DNA from: Candidatus Zhuqueibacterota bacterium
Lineage (GTDB): Bacteria > Zhuqueibacterota > Zhuqueibacteria > Thermofontimicrobiales > Thermofontimicrobiaceae
NCBI GenBank assembly: GCA_016783825.1
Contig: JADHVV010000005.1
Location: 1-56,834, forward strand
Reading direction: 5' to 3'
DNA length: 56,834 nt
Below are positions 7,706-56,834 of the stretch, piece by piece. Every line of letters begins with the position of its first letter. The first letter of the stretch is position 1. The notes under the pieces are model-generated. The model made no database searches. It worked only from the letters and a program-made list of their open reading frames with translations, and was not told the DNA's origin. Both the position numbers and the translations under genes were made by a program.

Positions 7706-7812
7706 CTAACTCTTATTCCTCTCAAATCAGTTGGCTGCTCATCCGTTGGTTTTTCCATTCAAATCTTCAATTTCACCTAGCGAACGTTTACACCAACAAA
7801 AATTTCATGATT

Positions 7813-15530: not shown

Positions 15531-15617
15531 ATCTCAAAAGTAAGAAAAATATTTGAAAAATCAAAATGATTTTATTATACTTTTTAAAATGTAATACCTC
15601 AATTATTGGTGGTAAAA

Positions 15618-15648
15618 ACTTTACTAAACCTTGAAGGTTTAGTAAAGT
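15618..15648. repeat. Short hairpin CTTTACTAAACCTT-AAGGTTTAGTAAAG
   Basis: Near-identical copy at 51903-51935. Confidence 0.75.
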
Positions 15649-15687
15649 TGCTCTTTCCGTAATAGTTCGCCACCCTAAACTAATGCT

Positions 15688-16178: not shown

Positions 16179-16489
16179 TGTATGACGTTATGAAACCTTA
16201 TTCTTGTTTTTTAAACCTTAGTAGTAAAAAACCAAGCCCCATTTTTACCTTATTACCTTATTCTTCTGCAAAGTCTCATGGTAATGTTTTATGAATTGTT
16301 CATAGTCATCAGCAAACGTTTCTTTTTTGTGATTCTCAGGTTGATTAAGCATACTGAATACAAAATGGGTGTCTAAGTTGTTATATTCTACTTTCATATC
16401 AAATAAGGTAATAAGGTTTACGGATTTAGTTGATTTTCATATTCTACTAAGGTTTTAAAGATAAAAATAAGGTTTTTATTAACTCAACA
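16179..16489. mobile_element. Gene-less mini-transposon with TGT...ACA ends and repeated ACCTTA sites (Tn7/Mu-like end architecture)
   Basis: About 80-bp imperfect inverted arms, four ACCTTA units on each side; no target-site duplication. Confidence 0.5.
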
Positions 16490-19954: not shown

Positions 19955-20060
19955 GTTTGAAGTGCCTAAATTGCCTAAAGTGCACTAAAGTACTTTTCTA
20001 TTATTAACTTTAGACTTGTACTTTAGTGCACTTTAAACTTTAGAGCACTTTAGATCACTT
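19955..20060. repeat. Tandem-unit palindrome (GAAGTGCCTAAAG family)
   Basis: Second copy at about 22638-22713. Confidence 0.7.
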
Positions 20061-30928: not shown

Positions 30929-30953
30929 TTTTATTATCCTTTATTTTACTGCC

Positions 30954-48315: not shown

Positions 48316-48389
48316 TTGATGGGAGATTTTTGGGAGTATTTTAATTGTGATGGTTACCTTGAAAAACAAATCCAATCCGCCGCGGCGGA

Positions 48390-49254
48390 AAACAACCCAA
48401 CGGATAAAAAATTAAAGATGTGAAATGGAATTATTACATAAAGATTTGTCGCATGATTTGATCGGGTGTTTCTTTCATGTGCATAATACATTAGGAGTGG
48501 GATTTGATGAAAAAACTTACCATAATGCTTTGGAGTACCACTTGGGAAAATGTGGGATAAATCATTTTTCAAGGGAGAGAAAAGCACTTTATCATCGCGG
48601 CTATCAGGTGAGGTCGTTTGAAACAGATTTTGTAATTTCAGGAAAGATAATTTTAGAATTAAAAGCTATTCAATCCCGCTTTATTCAAGCAAATTATGTA
48701 CAAATTCTTTCGGAGTTGAAATTATGGAAAATGCAATTGGGATTGCTTGTTAATTTTGGTTTACAAAAAGTTATTATTGAAAGAATACCCTTTTCAGAAA
48801 AACCAAAAACGATTTATGAAAACTATGATCATATCAAAGATAATATTGATGAGAATGATAGAAAAATATTGGCAGCGGTTCGTGACAGTATTCTTTATGT
48901 TTTCGAGGTTCATGGTTTGGGTTATGGCGGCGCTCTCTATCGTAAATTGATCGAAACAGAACTTGAATTTAAGAAACTAAATTATCAGAAAAAAATTCCT
49001 ATCTCAGTGAAATACGAGGGTGAAGTAATATCAGAATTCAAAATGAAACCAATGGCAGTAGAGAATTGAATTATCTGTGCCATAAATGCACTCGGGGATA
49101 AAATTGATTTTTATGACATTGCAAAAATCAAATCTTACTTAAGAGTGTTAGGCTTACAAATTGGTATTATCGTTAATTTTGGAAAAAGCAAATTAGAAAT
49201 AAGAGCTATTTCTATCTAATATTCAAAAAAAATCTTTTATCCGTTGGGTTGTTT
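48390..49254. mobile_element. GxxExxY-carrying unit bounded by perfect 20-bp inverted repeats
   Basis: AAACAACCCAACGGATAAAA (48390-48409) / TTTTATCCGTTGGGTTGTTT (49235-49254). Confidence 0.7.
48425..49219 (+). pseudogene. Tandem two-domain GxxExxY (PD-(D/E)xK-like) protein with in-frame TGA at 49067
   Basis: GFDEKTY, ELKA, VNFG; the second domain continues after the TGA (IICAINAL...SYL...GIIVNFG) to TAA at 49219. Confidence 0.8.
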
Positions 49255-49337
49255 CTATCCGTTGGTTTTGCCTATAACTTCCAATATTTTAATCAATTAA
49301 ATATCACAGAACAAAAACAGTTAACCCGGAGACCACA

Positions 49338-49682
49338 ATGAAAAAATTAACTTTTAGCCTCACAACAATTCTACTAATCGCTCTGATAAGCTGTGCCGCC
49401 AGAACAAGAATATTTGATATTAAACAAACCCCGAGAAGATTTCATGATAAAACGGTTACGGTTGCAGGAACGGTTACTAATACAATTTCACTTCCTGTTC
49501 TCAAAGTAGGTGTATTTCAAATTGATGACGGCTCAGGGAAAATTTGGGTAAAACCAAAACATAACACCCCATTCAAAGGTGACCGGGTGGCAGTAACCGG
49601 AACAATCAAAGTTGGTATCACCATTTCCGGGCGTAGTTTTGGTGTAATTCTATTTGAGTCTGACACTGATGAACCGTTGTAA
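49338..49682 (+). CDS. OB-fold lipoprotein
   Basis: Lipobox LISC; V.V.G.V, DDGSG.IWV, GDRV.V.G. Confidence 0.75.
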   Translation: MKKLTFSLTTILLIALISCAARTRIFDIKQTPRRFHDKTVTVAGTVTNTISLPVLKVGVFQIDDGSGKIWVKPKHNTPFKGDRVAVTGTIKVGITISGRSFGVILFESDTDEPL

Positions 49683-49763
49683 ATTTATAATTTGAAAATT
49701 TTTTAATTGACTATAATTGTTTTTATTACTATCTTTATCTTTTAAAATTTCGCACAGAATTTC

Positions 49764-49893
49764 ATTAATGACTCTGTTGATTTAGTCAATTTTTTGGATT
49801 TGAACTACACTATATAGTTGCACACAAGATTATGCAATATAATATATTGACAATTTGAATGTTATAAGGCATAAAATCAACAGAGTCATTAAT
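49764..49893. mobile_element. MITE-like element with perfect 20-bp inverted ends
   Basis: ATTAATGACTCTGTTGATTT / AAATCAACAGAGTCATTAAT. Confidence 0.65.
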
Positions 49894-49937
49894 ATTTAAA
49901 ATCAGTTATTATTTGCATAGAGGAGAGGCACCCGATA

Positions 49938-50909
49938 GTGTTAGAAAAAATTTGTCTGCCAATCAAGAAAGAATTAGAGGAACTCGAACAGGAATTTTCA
50001 TCAATTATAGAAACAGACGTTAAACTCATCCAGGATATTTTTTCTTATGTAATTTCTAATAAGGGTAAACGGTTACGCCCGATACTCTTATTATTATGTA
50101 GTGGCTTAAAAGGAAAATCCACTGAAATATCATTGAAAACTGCTATGATCGTTGAGTTATTGCACTCCGCCACCTTAATTCATGATGATGTGGTGGATAA
50201 CTCAAATTTGAGAAGAGGTAATCCTTCAGTCAACTCAATTTGGGAAAACAAGATATCTGTTCTGATTGGCGATTTTTTATTTGCTCACATTTTTGGCAGT
50301 TTGGTGGGAATGAAGGACAACCGGCTGATTAAAATCATTGCGGAAGTAACTTCACAAATGAGCCAGGGGGAACTGCTCCAAATGGAGCGGGTACAAGATT
50401 TTCAAATGGATGAAGAAACTTACATGAAGTTAATTTCTCGTAAAACAGCCTCGCTTTTAGCAGCCACCTGTCAAATTGGCGCCATTACATCATCAGTTGA
50501 TAATGAAACAAAACACATTGAAAACATGAGGATGTTTGGAGAAAATCTTGGTATCGCATTTCAGATAAAAGATGATTTATTAGATTTTTATGGAAGTCAG
50601 GACGACCTGGGAAAGCCGATTGGAAAAGATTTAATTGAAAATATCATCACTCTGCCTGTTTTATACAGTCTGAAAAACACAGATGAAGACACCCGGGAAA
50701 AAATGCTCTCAATTCTTGAAAATGGCAAAGAAGACGAGATGCAAACCATCATTGAATTTGTAAAAAAATCAGGCGGTCTTAATTATGCCGAAAAGAAAGC
50801 AAATTTTTATATCAAGAGTGCATTAGATTGTTTGGACAACTATCCCCCATCTTTATACAAAGAATCACTTATTCTTTTATCAGAATACATTACTGCACGG
50901 AATAAATAG
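49938..50909 (+). CDS. ispB: Polyprenyl diphosphate synthase
   Basis: GKRLRP, LIHDDVVD...RRG, KTA, FQIKDDLLD. Confidence 0.88.
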   Translation: MLEKICLPIKKELEELEQEFSSIIETDVKLIQDIFSYVISNKGKRLRPILLLLCSGLKGKSTEISLKTAMIVELLHSATLIHDDVVDNSNLRRGNPSVNSIWENKISVLIGDFLFAHIFGSLVGMKDNRLIKIIAEVTSQMSQGELLQMERVQDFQMDEETYMKLISRKTASLLAATCQIGAITSSVDNETKHIENMRMFGENLGIAFQIKDDLLDFYGSQDDLGKPIGKDLIENIITLPVLYSLKNTDEDTREKMLSILENGKEDEMQTIIEFVKKSGGLNYAEKKANFYIKSALDCLDNYPPSLYKESLILLSEYITARNK

Positions 50910-50912
50910 TTT

Positions 50913-51920
50913 ATGAGAAAAATCCCCCGGTTCGTTGTAATAATTTTAATATTTATAAGTTGTTCATCCTCCCAAAAATTTAATCCGGTGGAACAGACAA
51001 GAATTTTAATGGACACTTTTGTCCAGGTTCAAATTTTCGACCAGGACAAACCGGAAGAAGAACTTAAAAGAATAATCGAAGCAACTTTTCAGCGTATAGA
51101 AGAGATTGATAGTATTACAAACAATTACAACGACTCAAGTTTGATTGCGTTTATCAATCGTAATGCCGGTTTAAAGTCAGTGGTGTTGGACAGTATTTTA
51201 GAATACATCATTCAAACAAGTGAAAAAATATCAGAAGAATCCAATGGTTTGTTTGATATCACCATTGGCAGCATCAAACAGTTATGGAATTTTTCTTCTG
51301 ATAACCACCGGATACCAAAATCCGATGAAATTGAAAAGAAACTTAACGATGTAAATTATCAACTCATCAAACTAAAAAATCATAAGATTAAATTTCTTTC
51401 ACCCGGGATCGAAATTGATTTAGGCGCCATTGCCAAAGGATTTGCTATTGATGAAGCAATCCGGGTTTTAAAGAAAAACAATATTACAGATGCAATGGTA
51501 AATGCCGGGGGTGATTTGCGGGCAATTTGCAGTGAATTAACCAGAGGGAAAAGAAAGGTGTGGATCAGGCATCCCAGAATTGAAAATCGCCGCTTTGGTT
51601 ATTTTCAAATGGATAACGGCAGTGTTGCCACATCAGGAGATTATGAACGATTTTTTTTCCAGGATTCAATTCGGTACCATCACATTTTAAATCCCGGAAC
51701 AGGCTATCCAGCCAACGAATGTGTTAGTGTTACTGTCCAAACAGAAGAGGCAATTTACGCTGATGGGTTGTCAACCGCGATATTTGTTTTGGGTCCGAAA
51801 ATGGGAATGGAATTAGTTAAAAAATTAACCGGCGTTGAGGCTGTTATTCTTTTCCTGCGCAATGGAGAACTGGATTGGATTGTTTCAAGTGGTTTAAAAA
51901 ATAGCTTTACTAAACCTTAA
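50913..51920 (+). CDS. apbE: FAD:protein FMN transferase
   Basis: FDITIG, DLGAIAKG, NAGGD, ATSGDYER, HHILNP. Confidence 0.93.
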   Translation: MRKIPRFVVIILIFISCSSSQKFNPVEQTRILMDTFVQVQIFDQDKPEEELKRIIEATFQRIEEIDSITNNYNDSSLIAFINRNAGLKSVVLDSILEYIIQTSEKISEESNGLFDITIGSIKQLWNFSSDNHRIPKSDEIEKKLNDVNYQLIKLKNHKIKFLSPGIEIDLGAIAKGFAIDEAIRVLKKNNITDAMVNAGGDLRAICSELTRGKRKVWIRHPRIENRRFGYFQMDNGSVATSGDYERFFFQDSIRYHHILNPGTGYPANECVSVTVQTEEAIYADGLSTAIFVLGPKMGMELVKKLTGVEAVILFLRNGELDWIVSSGLKNSFTKP

Positions 51921-51937
51921 AGGTTTAGTAAAGCTAA

Positions 51938-52089
51938 TTCTATTTTGTCAGATTAGAAAAATTACCAAAAAGTGTCATTCCGGCACGTTTTTTTGCCGGA
52001 ATCTCCTGCTAAATTCTAACGAGATTCCGGTATTCCGCTTCGCTTCAACCGGAATGACAAACGAATTGTGGTAATGTGACAAAGTAGAA
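51938..52089. mobile_element. MITE with 4-bp TSD carrying a REP-like palindrome
   Basis: TTCTATTTTGTCA / TGACAAAGTAGAA; CTAA on both flanks; inner element 51974-52058; solo end TGACAAAGTAGA at 29044. Confidence 0.7.
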
Positions 52090-52185
52090 CTAATATGCCA
52101 TAAATAACTCATTCTCAAAATTGTGATTAACTAAGATTTTTTTGAACATCAACCGTGATTTATGATTATAACGGAGACGATAATT

Positions 52186-53121
52186 ATGCCAAGAACTTTA
52201 GTAACAGGTGGAGCCGGATTTTTAGGCTCTCACATTTGTGAATATCTTCTGAATAAAGGTCACCAGGTTATTGCAATAGATAATCTGCTTACTGGCTCTA
52301 TCAAAAATATTGAACCGTTGCAATGTGACAATTTTAAATTCATCAAACAAGATGTTACCGAATATTTATACATTGGAGGAGAAATTGATTACATTCTCCA
52401 TTTTGCTTCTCCAGCAAGTCCATTAGATTATTTAGAACTGCCAATACAAACATTGAAAGTTGGCGCCCTGGGGACTCATAAAGCGCTTGGATTGGCATTG
52501 TCAAAAGGAGCACGGTTTCTATTAGCGTCCACTTCTGAAATTTATGGAGATCCATTAATTCACCCGCAGAGTGAAGACTATTGGGGAAATGTAAATCCTG
52601 TTGGTCCACGAGGAGTTTATGATGAAGCAAAACGTTATGGAGAAGCATTAACCATGGCATATCACAGGTACCATAATGTTGATGCAAAAATTGTAAGGAT
52701 TTTCAATACGTATGGTCCAAGGATGCGTCCTAAAGACGGCAGGGCTATTCCAACTTTTATTCCCCAGGCGTTAAAGAATGAACCGATAACTATTTTTGGT
52801 GATGGTTCTCAAACCCGCAGCTTTTGTTATGTATCCGACCTGGTTGAAGGTCTTTACCGATTAATTGTGTCTGACACGAATGAACCCGTTAATATTGGCA
52901 ATCCAATTGAAATGACCATTAAAGAGATGGCAGAAACTGTTATAAAAATTTTAGGAAGCACAAGTCAACTAATCTATAAAGATTTACCAGTTGATGATCC
53001 CAAAATAAGACAGCCAAATATTAGCAGGGCAAAAGAAATATTAGACTGGGAACCAAAAATTGACTTTGAAGAGGGCATAACAAAAACGATTGAGTGGTTC
53101 AAAACACAACAATTAGATTGA
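52186..53121 (+). CDS. UDP-glucuronate decarboxylase (UXS-like SDR)
   Basis: [38 protein letters not shown]. Confidence 0.9.
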
Positions 53122-53122
53122 T

Positions 53123-54205
53123 ATGAGAGATGATTCATCAACAAAACCACCTCAAAAAATTCTGCTAATTCGTTTAAGTTCAATTGGTGACATATTATTA
53201 ACAACGCCTGTTATCAGGGTTTTGAAATTAACTTTTCCCAACTGTACAATTGATTTTGTGGTCAAAAATCAATTTGCTGAATTATTAGAAAATCATCCAT
53301 CGCTGAACCGGTTGTACAAATTAGAGAAAGGAAACAATAACCAAACATTAAAAAAAATTAAGCGCCAAATAAAAAATAATAATTACGATCTTATTGTTGA
53401 TCTTCACAAGAATTTTCGCAGCTATTGTTTGACTTTTCGAGTCGGGGCAAAAAAGATTGTACGATACACAAAATTTGTATTCCGCCGATTTTTATTCGTC
53501 AAACTAAAGATCAATTTATTCAAACAAATTATTCCCATTTTTGAGCGTTATTTTTTGGCCCTTGTTCCGTTTAACATCCAATACGATGATTCAGGATTGG
53601 AAATATATTTTAATAAACAAACCGAAAAAAAAATAAAAACAACTTATGAACATTTTATAAATAATCAGGATGATATTTTTATCGGCATTGCCCCGGGCGC
53701 CAGTTTCGCAACCAAACGGTGGACTATTGAGGGCTTCCAAAATGTGATCACTTATTTTATTGAGCAGCAAAATGTTAAAATCATCCTTTTTGGTAATAAG
53801 CTTGACAGGGAACTTATTGAATCATTACACATAACAAAAAATCAAAATATATTAAATAGCGCAGGAAATCTTTCCATTTCAGAAACAGGTGTATTGATGG
53901 ATCGATGCCACGTTGTTCTGACAAATGACAGTGGTCTATTGCATTTGGCATCGGCGCTAAAAAAACCGGTTGTCGCCATCTTTGGAAGTACAACTGAAGA
54001 ACTTGGATTTTTTCCATCAACTACGAAAAATATTGTAATACAAAATAGTAATTTAAAATGCCGTCCCTGTTCACATGTTGGCAGGAACAAATGTCTAAAA
54101 GATCATTTTAAATGTATGAAAGATATCACTTCAAATGAAGTAATAAAAGCGGTTGAAAAATTGGTAACCGTTCATAAAGTGAGTAATACAAATTCCAACG
54201 GATGA
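53123..54205 (+). CDS. GT9 heptosyltransferase (WaaF-like)
   Basis: IRLSSIGD, APGA...KRW, NDSG..H.A, C.PC...C. Confidence 0.88.
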   Translation: MRDDSSTKPPQKILLIRLSSIGDILLTTPVIRVLKLTFPNCTIDFVVKNQFAELLENHPSLNRLYKLEKGNNNQTLKKIKRQIKNNNYDLIVDLHKNFRSYCLTFRVGAKKIVRYTKFVFRRFLFVKLKINLFKQIIPIFERYFLALVPFNIQYDDSGLEIYFNKQTEKKIKTTYEHFINNQDDIFIGIAPGASFATKRWTIEGFQNVITYFIEQQNVKIILFGNKLDRELIESLHITKNQNILNSAGNLSISETGVLMDRCHVVLTNDSGLLHLASALKKPVVAIFGSTTEELGFFPSTTKNIVIQNSNLKCRPCSHVGRNKCLKDHFKCMKDITSNEVIKAVEKLVTVHKVSNTNSNG

Positions 54206-54358
54206 GCGGCCAACGGATACGAATTTAAATTTCTGATGAACTTAAATTGTTTTTTTACTGAATGTCTGATGATGTTTTCGTTTAATCAATTTTTTTTAAG
54301 AGGCATTCTAATAAAAAAAATTACAATAGCCAAAATCCGTTGGCTGCTCATCCGTTGG
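54195..54358. repeat. Gene-less CCAACGGAT-arm palindrome
   Basis: CCAACGGATGAGCGGCCAACGGAT / ATCCGTTGGCTGCTCATCCGTTGG; solo arm at 7726-7749. Confidence 0.8.
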
Positions 54359-56499: not shown

Positions 56500-56834
56500 G
56501 GCATGGTGCATGGAGCAAAGCGCATGGCATAATATCACAATCCTATGCGCCATGCGCCTTGCTCCATGCGTTTTTATTAACAAACAGATGCTAACATATT
56601 AAATTACCATAACGCACTAAAGTGCAGGCGAAGGCTGAGGCGAAGGCGAAGGAAAAAAAAGAATATCCTTGAATCTTATACCTTGCTTCGCCTTTGCCTT
56701 CGCCTCAGCCTTTTCGTTGTAATAGTAATTGATCTTTATTAAAAAACTTTTGCATAAAAAACAAAGATTCAACTGGTAATACTATAACGCACTAAAGTGC
56801 AGGCGAAGGCTGAGGCGAAGGCGAAGGAAAAAAA
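56500..56834. repeat. CATGG-arm palindrome followed by AGGCGA-arm palindrome, whose left part is duplicated at the window end
   Basis: 56609-56659 identical to 56784-56834; CATGG family also at about 37480-37560 and 43695-43765. Confidence 0.75.

Follow-up and report, generated by a model that had tools for sequence, protein, structure and literature searches.

A predicted GxxExxY nuclease gene between tandem-unit inverted arms and a superfamily of intergenic hairpin elements sharing its repeat word in a Zhuqueibacterota genome

A gene of the GxxExxY family was found between inverted, repeat-bearing arms in a DNA stretch of 56,834 nucleotides (nt) from a Candidatus Zhuqueibacterota bacterium (contig JADHVV010000005.1 of assembly GCA_016783825.1), which as a whole is referred to as the window. 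The window is contig C171 of genome G000, an assembly of 4.54 Mb in 260 contigs with 37% G+C. Its arms carry a 9-nt word, CCAACGGAT, which is also present in a gene-less palindrome and in a solo arm elsewhere in the window. The gene cassette is situated among co-directional genes, and both the cassette and the palindrome lie between protein-coding open reading frames (ORFs). The following features were assigned:

48377 to 48413, plus strand: left arm of the gene cassette, consisting of the GC hairpin CCGCCGCGGCGG (48377-48388), a spacer and one CCAACGGAT (48397-48405)
48425 to 49219, plus strand: two-domain GxxExxY gene (PF13366 / TIGR04256) with an in-frame TGA at 49067-49069
49231 to 49265, minus strand: right arm of the gene cassette, a type A doublet with CCAACGGAT at 49239-49247 and 49257-49265, 18 nt apart
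54195 to 54218, plus strand: left arm of the gene-less element, a type B doublet CCAACGGAT-GAGCGG-CCAACGGAT
54219 to 54334, no strand assigned: conserved core of the type B hairpin element family, 116 nt
54335 to 54358, minus strand: right arm of the gene-less element, a type B doublet
7726 to 7749, minus strand: solo type B arm with CCAACTGAT and CCAACGGAT units and a GAGCAG spacer

Eight exact copies of CCAACGGAT are present in the window, while 0.36 were expected and none of 100 shuffled sequences reached eight. All of them fall at the gene arms, the palindrome at 54195-54358 or the solo arm at 7726-7749. The arms of the gene cassette (48390-48413 and 49231-49254, 24 nt each) differ by one mismatch and include the perfect inverted repeat of 20 base pairs (bp) tightly around the GxxExxY gene (48390-48409 and 49235-49254) that had been reported in a preliminary description of this DNA and was confirmed here. 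The left arm ends 11 nt ahead of the ATG (48425), and the right arm begins approximately 11-15 nt past the TAA (49217-49219). The palindrome has arms of 24 nt with one mismatch as well; it encloses 116 nt, is non-coding and 164 bp long as a whole, and folded as RNA it forms a 25-bp stem with a z-score of -9.3 relative to shuffled sequences. The solo arm includes the variant unit CCAACTGAT and shares 23 of its 24 bases with the right arm of the palindrome (54335-54358). The right arm of the gene is of type A, with an 18-nt period and the spacer AGAAACAAC, the left arm is of type D, with a single CCAACGGAT unit behind a GC hairpin, and the palindrome and the solo arm are of type B, with a 15-nt period and the spacer GAGCRG. 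The same doubled unit had been assigned to the palindrome and the solo arm in the preliminary description, which was correct for the 9-mer but not for the spacers and periods (18 versus 15 nt). A weak terminator-like hairpin was found on the minus strand at 48376-48389. Promoter-like sites inside the gene cassette were not enriched (7 found, 5.2 expected), and no Rfam match at gathering scores was obtained in the window or in 15 related loci.

Genome-wide, 286 exact copies of CCAACGGAT were counted versus approximately 20 expected from composition. A search with four arm forms (A, B, C and D, up to 4 mismatches) returned 151 arms (78, 44, 21 and 8, respectively), which form 53 convergent pairs and leave 45 arms unpaired, among them the one at 7726-7749. 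The interiors of the pairs measure 3 to 833 nt, and a gene is enclosed only by the window pair; gene-less copies are abundant. Seven pairs are minimal hairpins with loops of 3-9 nt. The 46 interiors of at least 30 nt fall into families of 16 (mostly A arms), 10 (B arms, including 54219-54334), 3, 2 and 2 members and 13 singletons, some of the latter being other repeat elements nested within the pair. The core 54219-54334 groups with nine other arm-defined copies, and a search with the core only returned 12 loci. The cores of the gene-less families showed no similarity to the gene, and a simple internal-deletion origin was therefore rejected for these families. The element at 54195-54358 had been taken for an empty copy of the gene element, but its different spacer and its own conserved core of 116 nt excluded an emptied gene cassette or internal-deletion product. 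It belongs to a sister family, characterised by a separate core, and resembles miniature inverted-repeat transposable elements (MITEs). A better counterpart of the gene cassette is C164:3604-3746, where the same D and A arms surround 87 nt. Cassette, palindrome and solo arm are all members of one 9-mer-based superfamily of selfish intergenic elements.

The pairs are distributed over gene orientations (++ 18, -- 16, -+ 7, +- 4, with 5 inside an ORF and 3 at a contig edge) about like the background of intergenic gaps (++ 822, -- 799, -+ 198, +- 212), and no bias of the 53 pairs toward convergent gene ends was detected. The glycosyltransferase ORF 53123-54205 obtains its TGA stop (54203-54205) and its final codons from the first CCAACGGAT unit of the palindrome; altogether, the last ~10 codons of this glycosyltransferase family 9-like ORF derive from the outer flank of the element and the first 9-mer (~54170-54205). 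In genome G030, which is described below, the ORF of a histidine kinase ends with ...SNG-stop within an arm. Donation of stop codons by arms is not a rule, as it was seen for 8 of the 151 arms genome-wide. Head-to-tail arrays of five CCAACGGAT units with no inverted partner close by are present at C85:19801-19881, with an 18-nt period, and at C21:10261-10365, where 30- and 18-nt steps alternate. Many type A copies bear extra inverted modules outside the arms (GCAGTTGAAAAYGAAAAA..., then TTGTAAACGTTCACC... / ...GGTGAACGATTACAA), so that the CCAACGGAT hairpins are often the inner part of a composite repeat of ~300 bp. Contigs from three studies terminate exactly at the arms. Contig joints that skip elements were considered as products of excision and were not counted, since their sides are at most 36 nt long and most likely represent other repeat copies.

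Fourteen aligned type A copies are 94% and 89% identical in the two arms, 69% identical in the interior and 41-44% identical in the outer 60 nt. Because the arms had served to find these copies, the search was rerun with the interiors alone. This yielded 21 loci for family A, with 68 of 84 unit slots exact, and 12 loci for family B, with 35 of 48 exact, the inexact slots of family B being mostly arms displaced by nested insertions. The 9-mers are preserved far better than the interiors. Among type B pairs with exact units, the 6-nt spacers were complementary in 1 of 11 pairs, and the spacer mismatches of real pairs (1.36) were not below those of permuted pairings (1.09). As the spacers do not co-vary for pairing, selection seems, in this small sample, to act on the 9-mer word, beyond stem pairing alone.

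The product of the gene matched PF13366 with 115 bits (cut-off 22) and TIGR04256 with 115-146 bits (cut-off 35), two stretches being matched by the latter. The N-domain retains the GxxExxY...D...ExK residues (GFDEKTY, TDF and ELK), and G24, G26, E29, Y32, D68 and K80 are invariant across 20 aligned homologs, while the motif and catalytic residues are missing from the C-domain in the window copy and in all 20 homologs. The reading frame is not intact: it extends from 48425 to 49069, which corresponds to a truncated product of 214 amino acids, and continues in frame behind the TGA to 49219. This TGA (49067-49069) aligns to a CGA codon (Arg) of an intact homolog of 265 amino acids in G030 (L011:1734-2531). 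Contigs of two other studies that cover 48382-49253 showed 0 and 1 differences, neither of them at 49067, so that the nonsense codon is regarded as real. Recoding of the TGA is not indicated, as other genes of the window terminate in TGA. An AlphaFold2 model of the intact homolog was obtained with a predicted local distance difference test (pLDDT) score of 94.8 and a predicted template modelling (pTM) score of 0.89. Its top Foldseek matches were PD-(D/E)xK nucleases, including CinB (two nuclease domains, E 8.6e-4). Cas4 SSO0001 (PDB 4ic1) was matched with a probability of 1.00 and a root-mean-square deviation of 2.9-3.4 over 103-108 columns, and matches to MGME1 and lambda exonuclease were also obtained. 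Judged from this model, the two-domain GxxExxY protein is a predicted nuclease with a Cas4/RecB-like PD-(D/E)xK fold. A search of the PDB by sequence with a profile of 8 domains gave no match at E <= 1, and PADLOC and PHROGs assigned no defence or phage family to the two-domain protein; a weak PADLOC match to Cas4 (E 0.007) was confined to a single-domain paralog.

The site of the gene cassette was compared with G004, G009 and G003, which belong to other genera of the same family and in which the flanking genes have 68-75% DNA identity. In all three the orthologous site is free of the cassette and the upstream gene adjoins a small lipoprotein gene, with a spacer of ~40-50 nt in G004 and G009 and ~380 nt of unrelated sequence without the 9-mer in G003. 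The 54195 element is absent in G004, G009, G002 and G011. In these genomes 40-115 nt separate the glycosyltransferase gene from rsfS, versus 293 nt in the window, and the glycosyltransferase stops 2-5 residues past an AVEK-like motif, whereas the window ORF continues for ~10 codons into the element. Compared with related genera, both window elements are thus insertions. For many copies the flanking sequence itself consists of repeat modules.

Inverted repeats were scored in the flanks of GxxExxY genes, starting from the genome itself. Its eight GxxExxY loci scored 20, 36, 33, 45, 32, 24, 58 and 43, each with its own tandem unit, and six of them lie above the 99th percentile (31) of 1500 control ORFs, a comparison that is weakened because some of the control ORFs have coding flanks. 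A second filled site is present in G030, a member of a different family within the class, where type A doublets surround the intact homolog (64% protein identity) at a locus unrelated to that of the window. Flanks were further scored for 20 of the 48 two-domain matches obtained in other genomes by a search of the class, with the unpublished genomes G116 and G120 left out. A score of at least 31 was reached by 17 of these 20 homologs. The three below are L111, where the gene is split by a TAG and the wrong ORF was scored, L121, which is at a contig end, and L127 (score 22), where the units are visible. Together with the filled copy in G030 this supported the earlier proposal that gene and arms form one unit, which is conserved across genomes.

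The unit of the arms varied with the identity of the protein to that of G030. It is CCAACGGAT at 75-91% identity, CCAAC[AT]GAT at 66%, CCAACGGAT with other spacers at 46-56%, CCCACAGAT at 44%, CCAC(A/G)CGGAT, CACACGGA or CCACGGAT at 40-43% and CACGGAA at 32%. Mapped onto a maximum-likelihood tree of the 20 proteins, the nine arm subtypes can be explained by 8 changes, the minimum possible, while shuffled subtypes needed 13.1 on average and none of 200 shuffles was as low as 8. In the multi-paralog genomes G030, G107, G112 and G115 each paralog has a different arm subtype. The agreement of arm subtype with the protein tree shows co-inheritance of arms and gene, not recognition. At one host site, which is shared by L108 of G117, L115 of G107 and L117 + L011 of G030 (shared flanks 76-87% identical), a type A (AGAAACAAC-spacer) cassette is present in G117 and a AGATTAAGA-spacer cassette in G107, and both cassette types, with a kinase gene between them, are present in G030. 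The 3' end of the gene and the right arm are tandemly duplicated in G030 and G117.

Doublets, defined as two exact CCAACGGAT units separated by 6-9 nt, were searched in 125 genomes of the class. They were detected in 31 genomes with a patchy distribution (highest counts 183, 140, 135 and 100), and a reversed control pattern was absent from every genome. By family, and without G000, doublets were present in 5 of 13 genomes of f1, 4 of 21 of f6, 1 of 19 of f9, 18 of 19 of f10 and the single genomes of f11 and f15 (1/1 each). Two-domain homologs at E <= 1e-20 were found in 25 of the 125 genomes. Both doublets and homolog were present in 18 genomes, arms only in 13, the protein only in 7 and neither in 87, a cross-table whose entries are not independent because of kinship and whose overlap is mostly due to family f10. 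The unpublished genomes G116 (135 doublets) and G120 (87 doublets) are counted in these tallies, and no further conclusion depends on them. Mobility of the elements, at present or in the past, is well supported by their insertion relative to related genera, their patchy distribution and the second filled copy at another locus.

The same layout was observed with other genes and other units. Three genes of four-helix-bundle proteins (PF05635, the 23S rRNA intervening sequence (IVS) protein) scored 48, 27 and 51 and two more were seen to be armed by eye, and the PF05635 arm families have 54, 116 and 47 hits. Several sister arm families have many gene-less copies (13 to 116 hits). A survey of GxxExxY flanks across genomes, as suggested in the preliminary description, was performed with relatives of one single-domain paralog subfamily, which were collected with a 3-row alignment. 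The 80 outside loci, of which 79 were scorable, are mostly from Bacteroidota and also from Chloroflexota, Cyanobacteria, Acidobacteriota, Verrucomicrobiota, Proteobacteria and Ignavibacteria. A score of at least 31 was obtained for 36 of the 79 loci, and 55 of 79 exceeded the maximum of their own 20 shuffles, and the survey thus gave a positive result; the units at these loci are of the C[AG]CA[AG]AG type.

The idea that the GxxExxY element explains the intergenic palindromes holds for the CCAACGGAT palindromes themselves, but the window contains at least four other tandem-unit arm families. AAGGCTGAGGCGAAGGC is present three times at the window end (56631-56822). Its family has 116 hits in 82 contigs, many of them lying ~100 nt from the end of a contig, and a four-helix-bundle gene on C220 is enclosed by arms of this family. 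Arms of the GTGGCAGTGGCAG type are located at 30949 and 41102, and this family has 47 hits and a gene copy on C137. Palindromes of doubled short units were found at 16247-16417 (ACCTTATT twice, 139-nt gap) and 19976-20035 (TAAAGTRC twice, 24-nt gap). At 49764-49893, upstream of a polyprenyl synthase-like gene, a perfect 20-nt inverted repeat, ATTAATGACTCTGTTGATTT, encloses a 90-nt gap, and similar stretches are present on contigs C177, C105 and C35 and in the relatives G012, G010 and G019. The repeat GTCATTCCGGCA...CCGGAATGAC with internal inverted repeats lies at 51935-52095 between ApbE-like and sugar epimerase/decarboxylase-like genes; the contig depth is ~400-590 there versus ~14 nearby (run X2), and copies of it are nested in several CCAACGGAT pairs. 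Two near-identical, almost gapless palindromes (AACTTTACTAAACCTT / AAGGTTTAGTAAAGTT) at 15617-15649 and 51902-51936, the latter located directly where the ApbE-like ORF ends, could represent terminators or a further repeat.

MITEs such as Correia/NEMIS are short, non-coding elements with terminal inverted repeats and many intergenic copies. The 164-bp, non-coding element at 54195-54358 resembles them in its terminal inverted repeats and its shared core with 10 (arm-based) or 12 (core-based) copies. It is unlike them in having a presumed parent that codes for a small nuclease instead of a known transposase, and in that the same arms bracket many unrelated interiors. Repetitive extragenic palindromic (REP) repeats are single imperfect palindromes of 20-40 nt with a conserved GTAG-type head, whereas the arms described here are tandem arrays of a 7-9-nt word with periods of 15-18 nt, in which the 9-mer alone is conserved. 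Compared with REP doublets forming hairpins (REPINs) and REP-associated tyrosine transposases (RAYTs), as presented by Bertels and Rainey (2011, PMC3116915), three features are alike. These are an over-represented short extragenic word with inverted doublets as hairpins, one or few genes flanked by cognate repeats and far outnumbered by gene-less copies, and distinct repeat groups that are paired with distinct gene paralogs. In contrast, RAYT is a Y1 HUH (IS200/IS605-like) transposase, while the gene here matches PF13366 only and has a predicted Cas4-like fold, and in sister cassettes its place is taken by genes of four-helix-bundle proteins, which are not enzymes. With Cas4/RecB nucleases the protein shares the predicted fold and the catalytic D...ExK of the N-domain, but it has no CRISPR context and its second domain is degenerate.

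According to PMC4990558, the terminal stem of the 23S rRNA IVS of Coxiella burnetii measures 28 bp, and tandem GACAGAT heptamers immediately precede its S23p ORF; the IVS is cut by RNase III at the first repeat and is regarded as a selfish element. A small ORF in stem-forming terminal repeats and tandem short repeats in the arm are common to this IVS and the cassettes described here, and the GACAGAT heptamer is close to their AC[AG]GAT core. In addition, the S23p/PF05635 family of IVS also fills arm cassettes in this genome. IVS are located in an rRNA helix, whereas the present elements lie between protein genes, have a nuclease as cargo and are accompanied by dozens of gene-less copies. Excision by RNase III is shown for the IVS only (PMC4990558) and would apply here by likeness.

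Our preferred interpretation, which we hold tentatively and with slightly less than even confidence, is that a selfish arm-gene-arm cassette is represented in this genome by a single copy with a gene, 48377-49265, and that its nuclease mobilises the arms. It is favoured by the over-representation of the 9-mer, its patchy spread in the class and its conservation as a word, by the insertions, the second filled copy and the arms of 17 of 20 homologs and of 6 of 8 GxxExxY loci of the genome itself, by the co-inheritance of arms and gene and by the predicted fold. The CCAACGGAT words would be cis sites that are recognised by the cognate nuclease on duplex or extruded-hairpin DNA. Besides moving or maintaining its own cassette, the nuclease would do so in trans for the gene-less hairpins, as RAYT does for REPINs, and in read-through transcripts the arms might pair into a long stem of the kind that is cut by RNase III in 23S rRNA IVS. 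Mobilisation by the nuclease is the most likely single mechanism, although the chances that it is the right one fall a little short of even. Since the nuclease gene carries a nonsense codon, the CCAACGGAT family is probably no longer driven by this nuclease in this genome.

Several observations weigh against this interpretation. Thirteen of the 31 doublet genomes are without a two-domain homolog at E <= 1e-20, among them G047 (100% complete, 31 doublets) and G010 (20 doublets), and the homologs of G013, which has 140 doublets, are just 28-32% identical. Genes between high-copy repeats readily go missing from metagenome-assembled genomes, which weakens the objection from missing homologs. The cognate gene is a nonsense mutant although its arms are intact, and the catalytic Glu of the ExK motif is replaced by Ala or Ser in 6 of 20 homologs. 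Linked descent alone would yield an arm subtype that follows the protein tree. The architecture can do without a nuclease, as the PF05635 genes of the same genome share the arm-gene-arm layout. A target-site duplication could not be delimited, as the empty sites are 66-74% identical and the ends cannot be placed to the base, and with copies within a family being 69-86% alike, no recent burst was seen.

Some of these points fit a possible but less probable alternative, in which the arms are mobile or self-maintaining through another host or element factor or through hairpin recombination, and the nuclease and the four-helix-bundle proteins are passengers with a selfish or host-directed role of their own. 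It is favoured by the PF05635 genes, whose layout is alike although their units differ and whose arm families have many gene-less copies, by the doublet-rich genomes without a close homolog and by the gene that is broken here while its arms are conserved; the host site of G117, G107 and G030 with swapped or both cassettes fits an exchange by arm-to-arm recombination. However, arm subtype and protein clade correspond across genomes, with different subtypes retained by the paralogs of a single genome, the arms persist down to 32-40% protein identity with the unit drifting with the protein, and no other candidate mobiliser was found beside the arms. It is also conceivable, though rather improbable, that the cassette is chiefly an RNA device, whose arms form a double-stranded stem in read-through transcripts that is cut by RNase III, thereby releasing or silencing the cassette, with the gene-less copies as decayed forms. 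The arms flank the ORF closely, at a distance of 11 nt on either side, promoter-like sites inside are not enriched (7 versus 5.2 expected), the cassette is located between co-directional genes, the Coxiella IVS has a terminal stem and heptamers and is cut by RNase III (PMC4990558), and the 54195 element folds with z = -9.3. Yet complementarity between the spacers of paired arms is retained in just 1 of 11 pairs, whereas the 9-mers are exact; the conserved cores of the gene-less families bear no relation to the gene, so that these families are not simple decay products; and stem formation leaves the spread to ~100 sites unexplained.

It is very unlikely that the CCAACGGAT hairpins are an independent family and that the GxxExxY gene landed in the loop of one of them. 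The seven minimal hairpins with 3-9-nt loops and the many arm pairs around unrelated inserts, with 13 singleton interiors of which some are other repeats, are consistent with such a target role. In contrast, one gene lineage bears the same arms in different families and at different loci, and arm subtype and protein tree agree, which repeated independent landings would not produce; homologs that are armless or in clade-foreign arms were not seen in 17 of the 20 cases. Finally, the arms can hardly be merely an autoregulatory operator and terminator of the gene, an objection that had been raised in the preliminary description. They are tight at both gene ends, and the weak hairpin on the minus strand at 48376-48389 is terminator-like, but ~150 arms lie away from any such gene, and the gene-less copies contradict this explanation, as pairs enclose conserved non-coding cores and their placement among gene orientations is about that of the background.

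Extending the preferred interpretation beyond this genome, GxxExxY proteins might be the mobilising nucleases of a large undescribed class of bacterial DNA elements, with ORF-bearing 23S IVS as the rRNA branch, the many intergenic tandem-unit hairpins of such genomes as non-autonomous offspring and ends that consist of inverted arrays of a short word, read specifically by each lineage of the nuclease; we regard this extension as possible but doubtful. No description of arms around GxxExxY genes was found in the literature searched, which did not extend to subscription journals. In a 2012 survey of PD-(D/E)xK nucleases, the function of GxxExxY (PF13366) is listed as unknown (PMC3424549). PF13366 is a large family that extends over many phyla. 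For every lineage, the arms suggest a concrete DNA or RNA sequence as a candidate target, which is CCAACGGAT in the present case and a word of the C[AG]CA[AG]AG type in others, and the function can thereby be tested directly with oligonucleotides. If the preferred interpretation is true, the cassettes would constitute a second repeat-plus-enzyme system beside REPIN/RAYT, would provide a link to the long-unexplained origin of rRNA intervening sequences and would account for a large share of the assembly-breaking intergenic hairpins in such genomes.

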